From IMG/VR virus record IMGVR_UViG_2740892258_000009: 4,742 nucleotides of DNA, one strand, 5' to 3'. Below are positions 900 to 4,074 of this stretch, one piece after another. Each line of letters begins with the position of its first letter. Position 1 is the first letter of the stretch. A program made the position numbers and the translations under genes. Under the pieces are notes generated by a model that was not told the DNA's origin, made no database searches, and saw only the letters and a program-made list of their open reading frames with translations. This DNA is from a virus. Lineage: Duplodnaviria; Heunggongvirae; Uroviricota; Caudoviricetes.

Positions 900-938
900 A
901 TTACTACTGTTGTGGATATCCAGATTGTTAAAGAGCTA

Positions 939-961
939 AGCGTCCTGTAGGGCGCTTTTTT
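939..961 (+). terminator. Rho-independent terminator of the 408..899 gene
   Basis: Stem AGCGTCC (939..945), loop TGTA, stem GGGCGCT (950..956, one G-U pair), then a T-run to 961, starting 40 nt after the stop codon. Confidence 0.6.
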
Positions 962-1069
962 GTTGCTAACGAATCATCCGGTCATTCATACGCCACCGGC
1001 GGCTACTTCGTGGGCGTCCTGCCTGTCCGTGATAGCTTACATTATGTTGCTACTTAAAGTAGCAAAAAT

Positions 1070-1098
1070 CAACAACAAAAAGTAGATATTTGTTGTTG
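1070..1098. repeat. 10-bp perfect inverted repeat CAACAACAAA-N9-TTTGTTGTTG; possible operator or weak AU-rich leftward terminator
   Basis: Arms at 1070..1079 and 1089..1098. On the minus-strand RNA the hairpin is followed by AUUUUUG. It shares the CAACAACAA motif with 326..369. Confidence 0.5.
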
Positions 1099-1117
1099 TC
1101 TATGATTTTTCTATAAT
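1090..1117 (+). promoter_or_regulatory. Candidate sigma70 promoter: -35 TTGTTG (1090..1095), 16-bp spacer, consensus -10 TATAAT (1112..1117)
   Basis: Perfect TATAAT hexamer in an AT-rich tract; the -35 is weak (3/6) and overlaps the right arm of the 1070..1098 inverted repeat. There is no sizeable downstream ORF, so any transcript would be a small or antisense RNA. Confidence 0.3.
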
Positions 1118-1256
1118 TAATTGAAAGTTAAATGTTTTTGCTGATTTACTATGCTGTAAACTGAAAATATCGCACGAAGTTGGAGTAGGTATTGAGCATA
1201 GTGAATTATGAGGAGGGAGTTTTTTATGAGATTAATCAGGGAGAAAGAAGAGTAAA

Positions 1257-1276
1257 GCCCGGTTATGCGGCCGGGC
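1257..1276 (-). terminator. Probable Rho-independent terminator of the ParA-like gene (leftward transcript)
   Basis: GC-only 6-bp stem GCCCGG/CCGGGC with an 8-nt loop, 8 nt past the stop at 1284..1286. On the minus-strand RNA it is followed by the U/C-rich UUUACUCUUCUUU (interrupted U-tract). Confidence 0.5.
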
Positions 1277-1283
1277 ACATGCA

Positions 1284-2360
1284 TTACTTTGTAAGTTCTA
1301 GAACTCGTTGAGCCAGCCCTTTAAATTGTTCGTTAAAGGCGTCTCTGCTTGATTTCATTGTATTTAAGGCATGCCCAAATTGCCCTGAATCGCGAATTTG
1401 CTGATCACTGATGGAGAAAACAGGTGTCGCTAGTTGTTGGCTTATTGCGATTAATGAGTTGAAATCGGAAATATGCGCAAGATCATAGGCTGATAAATCT
1501 CCACTGACTGTTGTTTTGTTAATTGCATGTTGCACTTTATCTCGTGGAATTATGCAGGTAATTTTTTCTAGATTTGGCACTAAGATCGAATCAACAGCAT
1601 CACGGATAGCTGCCATCCATTTTTCGAAAGATTTTACAGGTGCTCCTTTACGCGGCCTGTATCTCTGCTGAATCATACCTAGAAACTGCGGTGCATTTTT
1701 AATTGATTGTGAAGAGTTACCATCATTATTTTCTTTAAATAATGCTAATTCTTTGTGCCAGCGAGGTATATTTTTTGAGAGAGAGCGAATTGCTTGCCAG
1801 CAAAAAAAGTCTGGAGCTACAGGTACGATAAAATAGTCACTTGACATGAGAACTACTTCATTTAAACCTCCAACATTAGGGCTGAGATCATAAAGAATGT
1901 AATCAATATTATTCTTCATGGCGATTAGCTGTAATATTTTTGGCAGGTTCCCTGGTATATTTCTTGTAGCAGGAATACCAGCAGCAATTTTTAGAGAAAC
2001 ACTTATCTGTGAATCTAAGTCCGAAACATCTAAATGTCCGGGAAGAAGCAGAAGGTTTTCATGCAGTGTAGGGTGTAATTTTCCCGTTTCTTTTTCAAGG
2101 TATGCTTCAGGTTGTCCGCCATTAATCAAATATTCTACAATAGGTCCAAGAGTTAAGTTATCTCTGCTAGAATAAAAAGAATCTAAACCCTCATCAATCT
2201 TTTCATAGCCAAGAACCATTCCTGTTAGATTACATTGCGAATCAAGGTCAACCATCAATACTTTCTTGCCTTCATCCGCAAGTGCCCATCCAAGATTGAA
2301 GGTTGTTGTGGTTTTACTTACCCCACCTTTATGATTAAAAAAACAAATTGATTTTGTCAT
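1284..2360 (-). CDS. ParA/MinD/Soj-family deviant Walker-A P-loop ATPase with ~110-aa C-terminal extension, 358 aa; orphan (no ParB in window)
   Basis: Walker A at residues 9-18 (NHKGGVSKTT, the KGGxxK[ST] signature), DLDSQ-type A-prime motif (VLMVDLDSQCN) and a hydrophobic-Asp Walker B (IDYILYDLSP). ATG at 2360 with AAAGGA 9 nt upstream. The gene looks AT-richer than the replication gene by eye (not computed). Confidence 0.85.
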   Translation of the reverse strand: MTKSICFFNHKGGVSKTTTTFNLGWALADEGKKVLMVDLDSQCNLTGMVLGYEKIDEGLDSFYSSRDNLTLGPIVEYLINGGQPEAYLEKETGKLHPTLHENLLLLPGHLDVSDLDSQISVSLKIAAGIPATRNIPGNLPKILQLIAMKNNIDYILYDLSPNVGGLNEVVLMSSDYFIVPVAPDFFCWQAIRSLSKNIPRWHKELALFKENNDGNSSQSIKNAPQFLGMIQQRYRPRKGAPVKSFEKWMAAIRDAVDSILVPNLEKITCIIPRDKVQHAINKTTVSGDLSAYDLAHISDFNSLIAISQQLATPVFSISDQQIRDSGQFGHALNTMKSSRDAFNEQFKGLAQRVLELTK

Positions 2361-2461
2361 ATTTCTCTATCCTTTCGACCCCCAGCATATTGTAATTTAC
2401 GCTGGGTGATTATTTTATATTGTTAATGATAATGTTTAATAAAAATAAGAGAGTAAAACAA

Positions 2462-2474
2462 CTATTAGTAATAG
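2462..2474. promoter_or_regulatory. Operator-like 13-bp palindrome CTATTAgTAATAG in the cI/ParA-like spacer
   Basis: Perfect dyad apart from the centre base; same CTATT-N5-TAG architecture as the two 13-mers between cI and cro. Lies ~100 bp upstream of the ParA-like ATG in a 170-bp AT-rich spacer. Confidence 0.3.
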
Positions 2475-2530
2475 CACTTGCTTGATAAATATTATTTTTT
2501 CACCTTTAGTTCTATAGTCTAAACGAAGAA

Positions 2531-3292
2531 CTAAAGCCGGTTGTATTTAATTGATTCGTGTATCAATGCTTTGCCCATAACATAAAGTTGATCTTGGGAC
2601 TTCTCATCAATGTACCATTTCTCATAGGCTGGATTATCCGAAAGAACGGCGAGTTTGTTGCCTTGCATTTGTAGACGTTTAACGTGGAACGTCTTACCAT
2701 AAACGAAAGAGTAAACACCATCAGTTTGGAAGTTGCGAACAGAAATGTCGACAAACAGTCGATCTCCGGAAACTAGAGTAGGGGACATGCTGTCGCCATT
2801 TACAGTCATAACTTTAATATCATCTTGAGAACGATTACCGAAAAGAGAACGGGCATGCTCTGTTGTGAACTCAATGGCGTAGAGCACATCAACATAGTCT
2901 GAAAGCATATAGGTTCCAGGTCCTGCGCTAACGCTAAGATCCAAAACTTCTATCCTGTATACATCGGGTTTTGTTGGATTGGGGATGCTTGCCATTTCCT
3001 TACATCCTTCTCTCTCGCCAACACCATATTCTAAATATGAAGCTGATACCCCCAGAGCCAATGCAAGTTTATTCATGACAGAGGCACGAGGCTTCGCAGC
3101 GCCGATTGTGTATCGCCGCGCCATTTCATATGTAACGCCCACAAGACTTTTGAGTTGGGTGACAGAAATTCCCTTGTTTGTCATTAGCTCGTTTAGTCTC
3201 TTGGCGAAATCTGGATACTTCTGTTCTTCTACCATAGGTAGAAGGTTACTCGCATCACATACGCTAGTCATTTCTATTTTAAGTAGTTGCAT
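2531..3292 (-). CDS. CI-type phage repressor: N-terminal HTH plus C-terminal S24 (LexA-like) autopeptidase
   Basis: HTH segment GISVTQLKSLVGVTYEMARRYTIG; Ala-Gly cleavage dipeptide in LSVSAGPG (residues 123-124 of the 253-aa frame); catalytic Ser in VNGDSMSPT and Lys in FHVKRL, 36 residues apart. Start is uncertain: ATG at 3292, 3271 or 3235 (253, 246 or 234 aa), and the 13-mer at 3274..3286 favours 3271 or 3235. No SD before any of them, consistent with a leaderless transcript as for lambda cI. Confidence 0.9.
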   Translation of the reverse strand: MQLLKIEMTSVCDASNLLPMVEEQKYPDFAKRLNELMTNKGISVTQLKSLVGVTYEMARRYTIGAAKPRASVMNKLALALGVSASYLEYGVGEREGCKEMASIPNPTKPDVYRIEVLDLSVSAGPGTYMLSDYVDVLYAIEFTTEHARSLFGNRSQDDIKVMTVNGDSMSPTLVSGDRLFVDISVRNFQTDGVYSFVYGKTFHVKRLQMQGNKLAVLSDNPAYEKWYIDEKSQDQLYVMGKALIHESIKYNRL

Positions 3293-3333
3293 TCTGCTAT
3301 TTTAAGTAGCATCATCCCTCTGAATTTCAGAGG
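3274..3333. promoter_or_regulatory. Divergent cI/cro control region: two 13-bp direct repeats CTATTTTAAGTAG (3274..3286, 3297..3309) and a 17-bp palindrome CCTCTGAA-t-TTCAGAGG (3317..3333)
   Basis: The 13-mers are 23 bp apart and each is an imperfect dyad (CTA.TT.AA.TAG). Their reverse complements contain TAAAAT, a -10-like hexamer placed to start a leaderless cI message at the 3271 ATG. The 17-bp palindrome overlaps the cro SD (GGAG at 3331..3334). Confidence 0.5.
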
Positions 3334-3341
3334 AGAAAGGT

Positions 3342-3605
3342 ATGTCATCTCAAAACTACACAGAGAAAGCAGTAAAAGCTGCGGGAAAATCTTTATCTGA
3401 AGTAGCCCGTCACTTTGGTTTTAAGTCCACTCAATCCGTCGCTAATTGGGTAATTAACAATCAAGTCCCGTCAGAACGGGTTTTACAACTTTGTGAGTTG
3501 GGAAACTGGTCCGTGACCCCTCATGAACTGCGTCCTGATATTTACCCCAATCCAAATGATGGATTACCTGAGTGCTATTCAAAAGTTAGCGGTTCAGCTG
3601 CGTAA
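3342..3605 (+). CDS. Cro-like early repressor, YdaS-type Cro/CI-family HTH protein, 87 aa
   Basis: Divergent from cI, GGAG SD 7 nt upstream. Motifs typical of YdaS-like prophage Cro proteins (AVKAAGKSLSEVARHFGFKSTQSVANWV... LRPDIYP). Stop TAA at 3603..3605. Confidence 0.85.
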   Translation: MSSQNYTEKAVKAAGKSLSEVARHFGFKSTQSVANWVINNQVPSERVLQLCELGNWSVTPHELRPDIYPNPNDGLPECYSKVSGSAA

Positions 3606-3633: not shown

Positions 3634-4032
3634 GTGGGTAAGCATCACTGGAAAATAGAAAAACAGCCTGAGTGGTACGTGAAAGCTGTCAGAAAAACTA
3701 TCGCAGCGTTGCCGGGGGGTTACGCTGAAGCTGCTGACTGGCTGGACGTAACAGAGAACGCATTATTTAACCGCCTTCGTGCCGATGGCGATCAGATTTT
3801 CCCGCTGGGATGGGCAATGGTTTTACAGCGTGCTGGTGGTACCTCTCAATTTCGAAGCTGCAGGAGCATGCAGCACTGGTCTACAAAATCTTTTGTGTTT
3901 CAGAAAGTAATGACGCCCGCGAGTGTGCAGCTCCGGGCGTCGTGGCGTCGATTGCTTCTGGTTGTGGAGAAACTAACGCATGAACAGTTTAACAACACAC
4001 TACCGTCGCTCGCAACTGTGTGGAGAAACTAA
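3634..4032 (+). CDS. cII-position early regulator, as present truncated by a frameshifting 56-bp tandem duplication (probable pseudogene or altered C-terminus)
   Basis: GTG at 3634 follows a strong SD GAGGAG (3622..3627, 6-nt spacer), in the frame of track ORF 3523..4032. ATGs at 3523 and 3556/3559 overlap cro and lack an SD. The frame stops at TAA 4030..4032 inside copy 2 of the duplication. Assignment to a CII/YdaT-like family rests on gene position plus a loose resemblance and is unverified. Confidence 0.55.
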   Translation: MGKHHWKIEKQPEWYVKAVRKTIAALPGGYAEAADWLDVTENALFNRLRADGDQIFPLGWAMVLQRAGGTSQFRSCRSMQHWSTKSFVFQKVMTPASVQLRASWRRLLLVVEKLTHEQFNNTLPSLATVWRN

Positions 4033-4074
4033 CGCATGAACAGTTTAACAACACACTACCGTCGCTCGCAACTG
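3963..4074 (+). repeat. Perfect 56-bp direct tandem duplication (3963..4018 = 4019..4074)
   Basis: Base-by-base identity of TGTGGAGAAACTAACGCATGAACAGTTTAACAACACACTACCGTCGCTCGCAACTG in two adjacent copies; flanking bases differ. 56 is not a multiple of 3. Confidence 0.95.

Follow-up and report, generated by a model that had tools for sequence, protein, structure and literature searches.

The window, by which we mean the whole 4,742-nucleotide stretch of DNA analyzed here, represents the immunity region of a lambdoid Escherichia coli prophage, and its features are listed in Table 1. In 109 complete E. coli genomes, including those of IHE3034, APEC O18, and PMV-1, the sequence of positions 1000..3400 recurs with 100% identity, and the prophage adjoins a tRNA-Arg gene next to folD. 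The repressor gene, which is annotated as an XRE-family regulator in IHE3034, and the gene for a ParA-like ATPase are encoded on the same strand, with the latter located between cI and OL/pL, the slot that is occupied by rexAB in lambda. This bears out the rex-like position proposed for the ATPase in the initial annotation, and domain and fold matches also agree with the names it gave to the two genes, i.e., a ParA/Soj-fold ATPase and a repressor of the cI type with HTH and S24 peptidase domains. The OL/pL region mirrors OR, since its 46 nt are 78% complementary to 3270..3315. At both OL and OR, the two operators are spaced by 23 bp and overlap the −35/−10 elements of pL and pR, respectively, and their positions yield an OR-OL distance of 2.2 kb.

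Table 1. Features of the immunity region and of the cI-ParA junction (positions are those of the window)
Feature	Position	Strand	Remarks
OL/pL region	1044..1089	−	Operators at 1050..1062 and 1073..1085
Intrinsic terminator	1257..1276	−	Directly 3′ of the ParA stop codon; 6 G-C pairs, then a T-rich tail
Orphan ParA/Soj-fold ATPase gene	1284..2360	−	358 aa; deviant Walker A KGGVSKT at residues 11 to 17
Shine-Dalgarno AAAGGA	2370..2375	−	9 nt before the ATG at 2360..2358
9-bp RNA hairpin	2381..2406	−	CCCAGCGUA / UAUGCUGGG, 8-nt loop; at or close to the 5′ end predicted for the ParA mRNA
Predicted sigma-70 promoter region	2409..2442	−	Consensus scan; weak −35 candidates, A/T tract upstream
Operator-like 13-bp dyad	2462..2474		CTATTAgTAATAG; both half-sites CTATTA; candidate by sequence likeness
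10-bp perfect inverted repeat	2504..2536	−	13-nt loop; forms a stem-loop where the cI coding region ends
cI-type repressor gene	2531..3235	−	Pfam HTH_3 and Peptidase_S24; RefSeq start, longer ORF to 3292
OR region	3270..3315	+	Two operators, both CTATTTTAAGTAG (3274..3286, 3297..3309); separates cI from the cro/YdaS-type gene
cro/YdaS-type gene	3342..3605		Divergent from cI; followed by a cII-like gene and a replication gene

Between the −10 element of pR and the cro ribosome-binding site, there is a 17-bp perfect dyad, CCTCTGAA-T-TTCAGAGG (approximately 3317..3333), which is unlike the operators and also occurs in L002, a prophage locus carrying the same repressor. Another dyad, CTACCATAGGTAG (3229..3241), overlaps the annotated cI start codon (3233..3235) and has the outer bases CTAC...GTAG in common with the operators; its score with the operator matrix described below is low (8.8), and it could be a weak third OR site. 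At the other end of the region, a 9-codon mini-ORF (MRLIREKEE, approximately 1212..1255, plus strand) with a strong AGGAGG ribosome-binding site converges on the ParA terminator. Relative to IHE3034, 207 bp within the cII-like/ymfL gene are missing from the stretch at 3839..4074, and the ORF is truncated by a tandem duplication of 56 bp (3963..4018 = 4019..4074). The best-matching (100%-identical) complete E. coli genomes all align to this stretch in three pieces, with no collinear copy found among them; the stretch could represent either a rare variant or an error of assembly.

As described in the initial annotation, cI and the ParA-like gene are separated by an AT-rich gap of 170 bp (2361..2530), whose G+C content is 27%, versus 43% for the window. 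This spacer was found only with the exact cI/ParA pair, at 99.5% identity or higher, in 109 E. coli genomes and 11 viral contigs, too little variation for a comparative test to be informative. The natural polymorphism comprises nine sites in six haplotypes, and none of the sites falls inside the 13-bp dyad or the 10-bp arms, which we estimate to be the chance expectation for so few sites. No match to the spacer was detected in the phage collection, no credible small ORF was found within it, and a search of Rfam at a permissive threshold gave no match over 900..3400. Local alignment with the spacers of 18 ParA homologues revealed no significant similarity to any of them; there was no repeat common to the homologue spacers, and the search for 13-mers common to each homologue's spacer and the rest of its locus yielded nothing convincing. 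At first, AGTGCTATTA seemed to match a conserved box of the L030-type loci; this match was dropped, since the spacer alignments are not significant.

At the cI end of the spacer, the 10-bp inverted repeat was located as annotated, with CTTTAGTTCT at 2504..2513 and AGAACTAAAG at 2527..2536, and the TAG stop codon of cI (2531..2533, minus strand) indeed falls within its right arm. Perfect 10-bp inverted repeats with a loop of up to 20 nt occur twice in the window versus 0.12 expected, the expectation for the spacer being 0.011, and the corresponding RNA stem folds with −13.6 kcal/mol (z = −3.55). The repeat is real, beyond what chance would produce. Only 3 of the 10 pairs in the stem are G-C, and it is followed by GGUGAAAAAAUAAU, in which there is no U tract; nor is the stem reported by the terminator scan. 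Lacking a U tract, it is not a canonical intrinsic terminator, which leaves read-through from the cI promoter, that is, passive expression of the ATPase, fully open. Homology with same-repressor prophages carrying other cargo stops at approximately 2527, which identifies the left arm as cassette DNA and the right arm as the end of cI. Apart from this repeat, the window has a single perfect inverted repeat of 10 bp, CAACAACAAA-N9-TTTGTTGTTG (1070..1079 / 1089..1098), and that one overlaps the second OL operator.

The ATPase matches the Pfam domains AAA_31 and CbiA. Its structure model (pLDDT 86) has its best fold matches in 3pg5, the nearest solved relative and an uncharacterized protein, and in Soj, and it also matches the Soj-DNA and pNOB8 ParA-DNA complexes. 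The deviant Walker A motif, conforming to KGGxxK[ST], and the modeled Soj-like fold place the protein in the ParA/Soj/MinD class. No extra sequence-specific DNA-binding domain beyond the Soj/ParA fold is evident in the model, there is no further ORF between the ParA gene and either OL or cI that could encode a ParB-type partner, and the ATPase scored far below the cutoffs of all curated NCBIfam partition models. A PADLOC match to PDC-M28B was rejected, since it is of Walker-A length only and does not denote membership.

Homologues of the ATPase (36 to 95% identity) were found in 42 viral contigs and 16 species genomes, ranging from Salmonella P22-like phages to Haemophilus and Helicobacter. 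They usually lie directly after the prophage repressor, sometimes with a DUF3024 gene in between. In at least 40 other loci, the upstream genes differ and at least 119 nt of noncoding DNA precedes the homologue in every case. The family, of approximately 357 aa, has more than 4,800 matches at E values below 1e-10, is 60 to 65% identical across Proteobacteria, and has no constant partner gene; in loci L018-L049 and L061-L081, it recurs directly after prophage repressors in a rexAB-like slot. By analogy with GiPD474 and RemA, it is a candidate phage-defense gene. The DUF3024 gene is present between the repressor and the ParA homologue in L049 (2521..2862), L061 (1918..2259), L028, and L035 (Salmonella phage ST160/SE1, Morganella), which suggests that DUF3024 and the ParA homologue form a two-gene version of the module. 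In L018-L035, L044, and L077, an in-frame 11-codon N-terminal extension begins at −33, counted from the conserved ParA start, with its own AAAGGA, and gene callers give a protein of 369 aa; in the window, the stretch matching this extension contains a stop codon. A near-consensus −10 lies so near the extension's ribosome-binding site that transcripts starting from there would skip that site, and the production of two protein isoforms from two promoters is a possibility in these relatives.

When prophages with the same repressor (92 to 95% DNA identity) were compared, the content of the slot was found to differ, with at least three alternative cargoes in E. coli genomes. These are ParA variant 1, which is the window's gene with its 170-bp gap; the seemingly unrelated ParA variant 2, whose product has 23% identity to the window's protein and which follows a 234-bp gap without spacer homology; and two small ORFs, the first of which starts 15 bp after cI. 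The G+C content of the ParA gene is 35 to 40%, versus 43 to 48% for cI. Hendrix and colleagues defined a moron as a promoter, a gene, and a terminator inserted between conserved phage genes, and the terminator of its own, the deviating composition, and the variable slot that mark such elements are all present at this locus.

A consensus scan of the spacer reported a promoter-like site at 2438..2409, with TAAAAT (2417..2412), TATAAA (2419..2414), and AATAAT (2414..2409) as −10 candidates, TAAAAT being at −57 from the ATG. The promoter and the start site are predictions in DNA of 27% G+C, where −10-like hexamers are common. In the homologue loci, a −10-like hexamer is located 48 to 58 nt upstream of the conserved start in 25 of the 33 usable distinct loci, 5 of these 25 having a perfect extended −10 (TGnTATAAT); since the window's spacer cannot be aligned to those of the homologues, the argument of a conserved −10 reaches the window by analogy only. 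In the relatives, this box abuts the ribosome-binding site of the 11-codon extension, which the window does not have, and its conservation there could be owed to translation rather than to transcription.

Downstream of the predicted promoter, the initial annotation had noted a third repeat, CCCAGC/GCTGGG, in the likely 5′ untranslated region (UTR). Its existence and its placement in the predicted UTR agree with our analysis; its position, given as 2382..2407, was one base off, the real arms being at 2381..2386 and 2401..2406. About 25 inverted repeats of 6 bp are expected per window by chance. On the ParA-sense strand only, the hairpin reaches 9 bp via a G-U pair, with a folding energy of −15.8 kcal/mol (z = −4.7). 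Two natural variants each disrupt one of its pairs without compensation, so that selection on the hairpin is not evident. Homology to the closest relative, L018, with a 95% identical protein, begins at the Shine-Dalgarno sequence, approximately 17 nt before the ATG.

The 13-bp dyad, CTATTAGTAATAG, was found at 2462..2474, as initially annotated. As such, a perfect 6+1+6 palindrome is at chance level, with approximately 3.9 expected per window and 0.4 per spacer. The geometry of the dyad and its outer bases (CTAYT...ARTAG) are those of the phage's four operators, and each of its half-sites (CTATTA) agrees with the operator half-site CTAYTT at 5 of 6 positions. With the unbiased pattern CTAYTTNAARTAG and up to 2 mismatches allowed, there were 5 matches in the window versus 0.78 expected, 3 of which are true operators. 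The pattern CTAYTNNNARTAG matched only the three strong operators and the dyad (4 versus 0.01 expected), a result that overstates the likeness since this pattern was drawn with the dyad in view. A half-site matrix was built, with the dyad excluded, from 9 natural operator variants, which came from the OL and OR regions of this and four further prophages that have the same repressor. As scored by this matrix, the dyad ranked 5th in the window with 11.95, the real operators scoring 13.2 to 20.2 (13.17 for the weakest) and the next site 8.8. Its one deviation per half-site, an A at position 6 (T-to-A), occurs in the natural OL variants CTACTAAAAGTAG and CTACTAAAAATAG. Equal-scoring sites arose in 1.2% of composition-matched shuffles of the spacer and in approximately 10% of whole-window shuffles, and 340 kb of unrelated DNA contained four of them (0.012 per kb). 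In 14.4 kb of the IHE3034 prophage, the dyad was the sole nonoperator site above 9.5. Judged by pattern, matrix, and shuffles, the dyad is closer to the operators than most sequence is, in keeping with the relationship to the phage's own 13-mers that had been claimed for it. This likeness appears real, yet it is suggestive rather than decisive, since the whole window had been scanned by the earlier reader.

If the dyad were a working operator, cI or Cro would set ParA expression by blocking read-through or by repressing or activating a promoter from approximately −63. Such direct control is favored by the 6+1+6 geometry and outer bases shared with the operators, by the matrix rank straight after the four operators, and by the precedent for the T-to-A change at half-site position 6 in natural OL variants, as well as by the absence of any other nonoperator site above 9.5 from the 14.4 kb of the IHE3034 prophage and the rarity of sites of this quality in shuffles and in unrelated DNA. 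Weighing against it, an equal site emerges in approximately 10% of the whole-window shuffles, and the score of the dyad is under that of the weakest real operator. Whereas lambdoid OL/OR arrays consist of pairs 23 bp apart over −35/−10, the spacer dyad is alone, scores lower, and is off the promoter candidates. No second site scoring 9 or more, including a partner at 23-bp spacing, was found within the spacer. Between the dyad and the three −10 candidates (2409..2419) downstream of it, there are 43 to 53 bp; its center, near −63, is approximately 50 to 55 bp upstream of the best of them, and the dyad overlaps no good −35 or −10 candidate; at this distance, it cannot occlude the predicted promoter. 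By the matrix, same-repressor prophages with other cargo have no consistent equivalent of the dyad and show chance-level sites only: where ParA variant 2 is the cargo, a single weaker site (10.2) covers the cI stop codon; in L003 and L004, which carry the two small ORFs, the matrix scan gave no site; and in the more distant L006, the one site (10.1) is intragenic, the background rate of such scores being 0.05 per kb. For three other repressor families upstream of ParA homologues, operators were derived from matches between their OR and OL, giving GWATAC-N5-GTATWC for L019, AATAC-N7-GTATT for L044, and GTAAA-N7-TTTAC for L024/L027/L077. None of the spacers of these loci contains a cognate full dyad, and only a half-site, AAAAGTAAA, is common to L027 and L077. 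Thus, the proposal that the ATPase is a repressor-controlled gene was not borne out, the site being solitary, too far upstream, and without equivalents in other contexts, and we consider this explanation unlikely. Most likely, the dyad is a fortuitous or a weak, nonessential repressor site; as it scores better than chance, it may still have a function. As a whole, the initial observation of this junction was largely right and is partly confirmed here, and the interpretation attached to it is partly supported.

Pure co-transcription is a different explanation, in which the ATPase gene lacks a promoter and depends solely on cI promoters of the pRM/pRE type, like rexA in lambda, and the spacer is an untranslated linker whose hairpins affect processing or stability only. 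In line with this, cI and ParA are on one strand with no canonical terminator between them, the predicted −35 is weak, and other cargo in same-repressor prophages starts 15 bp after cI; bstA presumably shares the repressor's promoter (PMC8585504). A gap of 170 bp with 27% G+C would, however, be unusual within an operon, every ParA homologue has at least 119 nt upstream regardless of the neighboring gene, near-consensus −10 boxes stand at a fixed distance in the relatives, and the stem-loop at the cI end is nonrandom, so we regard co-transcription alone as doubtful while still giving it some weight. It has also to be considered that the inverted repeats are DNA sites for the cargo, either an aba-like self-immunity element or an autoregulatory or loading site for the ATPase. 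There is a precedent in BTP1, where 63 bp spanning the bstA start constitute a DNA-based self-immunity element (PMC8585504); the spacer strictly co-occurs with this cI/ParA pair, and ParA-type ATPases bind DNA, with which the modeled fold matches to the Soj-DNA and pNOB8 ParA-DNA complexes would be consistent. Such a role is very improbable given that the model has no sequence-specific DNA-binding domain beyond the Soj/ParA fold, that relatives with a 95% identical protein have an unrelated spacer, and that no repeat is common to the homologue spacers. Taking the more elaborate options together, it is quite unlikely that the dyad is a third operator locus between OL and OR that would tie a ParA-like defense ATPase to the lysis-lysogeny switch, whether by activation from approximately −63 or by a read-through block, or that the repeats form an aba-like self-immunity element.

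We give about an even chance to the reading that we prefer, namely, that the spacer is the noncoding 5′ flank and control region of a separately acquired cargo cassette, or moron, with an orphan ParA-like ATPase. This cassette reading is based on the gene's own terminator, its lower G+C content, the variable slot, the constant upstream gap of the homologues, the predicted promoter, and the z-scores of the hairpins, and on bstA, GiPD474, and RemA as precedents for this slot. The layout of the junction, its repeats and their statistics, the variable slot, and the terminator are direct observations. From these, we infer a promoter, a transcription start, roles for the hairpins, and an expression pattern as follows. 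Transcripts from cI would meet the junction stem-loop, which has no U tract and would be at most a leaky barrier or a 3′-end stabilizer; hence, a degree of read-through from cI is probable. The ATPase would probably also be transcribed alone in the lysogen, from a predicted promoter whose −10 (TAAAAT, 2417..2412) is good and whose −35 is weak, and its own transcripts are predicted to start near 2402..2408. A hairpin at the very 5′ end of a message is known to stabilize E. coli mRNAs, and the 9-bp hairpin, lying no more than a few bases from the predicted 5′ end, would be expected to confer protection from 5′-end-dependent decay in E. coli. AAAGGA (2375..2370) would then serve the ATG at 2360, and the cassette closes with its own terminator shortly before OL. 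Overall, we would class this region as an ordinary cargo control region that had not been described before.

In lambda, rexA lies directly after cI in one operon with the promoters pRM and pLIT and the terminator tIMM. The window resembles this cI-rexA-rexB arrangement in that the cargo, encoded on the same strand as the repressor, lies between the repressor gene and OL/pL, with a terminator before OL and with expression expected in the lysogen. It differs in that 170 bp of AT-rich DNA, which contain a stem-loop and a predicted promoter, separate the cargo from cI, and its ParA-type ATPase is unrelated to RexA and RexB. With phage morons, the locus has in common a deviating base composition, its own terminator and predicted promoter, and a location in a slot whose content differs among prophages that are otherwise nearly identical.

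As for the protein, GiPD474 of Salmonella Gifsy-1 is a single ParA/AAA_31-type ATPase that adjoins a prophage repressor and confers resistance to a broad range of phages, its expression in lysogens exceeding 500 TPM (PMC12724215), and RemA is the ParA-like ATPase of RemAIN (PMC9879122, PMC13043305). Like the window's protein, both are ParA/AAA_31-type ATPases encoded next to a prophage repressor module, and GiPD474 acts alone. No regulatory sites are described for GiPD474 (PMC12724215) or for RemAIN (PMC9879122, PMC13043305). ParA variant 2 of the same-repressor E. coli prophages (L002, 1821..2906; L005, 1680..2765) encodes 361 aa with GGVGKT at residues 29 to 34; it has the length and Walker A position reported for GiPD474 (PMC12724215). 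The window's protein is just 23% identical to this 361-aa variant.

In lysogeny, the expression of bstA, which lies downstream of cI, is high (PMC8585504). The bstA/aba system of BTP1 (PMC8585504) is comparable to the window in that a defense gene lies downstream of cI, aba being a functional short DNA element at the gene's 5′ end. In contrast, aba has terminal direct CCCGCC repeats and overlaps the coding start, whereas the repeats in the window are inverted and lie upstream of the gene, and there is no sequence or protein similarity between the two.

The cI-to-N region, which holds rexAB and bstA, is a recognized hotspot of mosaic diversity (PMC8585504), and the cI-to-pL slot of lambdoid prophages is a recognized hotspot for anti-phage cargo, including rexAB, bstA, GiPD474, and RemAIN. 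The timing and mode of cargo expression decide whether the cargo shields the lysogen and whether it is harmful to its own phage upon induction. Direct repressor control, if true, would mean that the cargo is wired into the immunity switch rather than riding along. The more useful lead from this locus is the adjoining orphan ParA-like family of approximately 357 aa, which is very widespread and highly conserved and recurs directly after prophage repressors.
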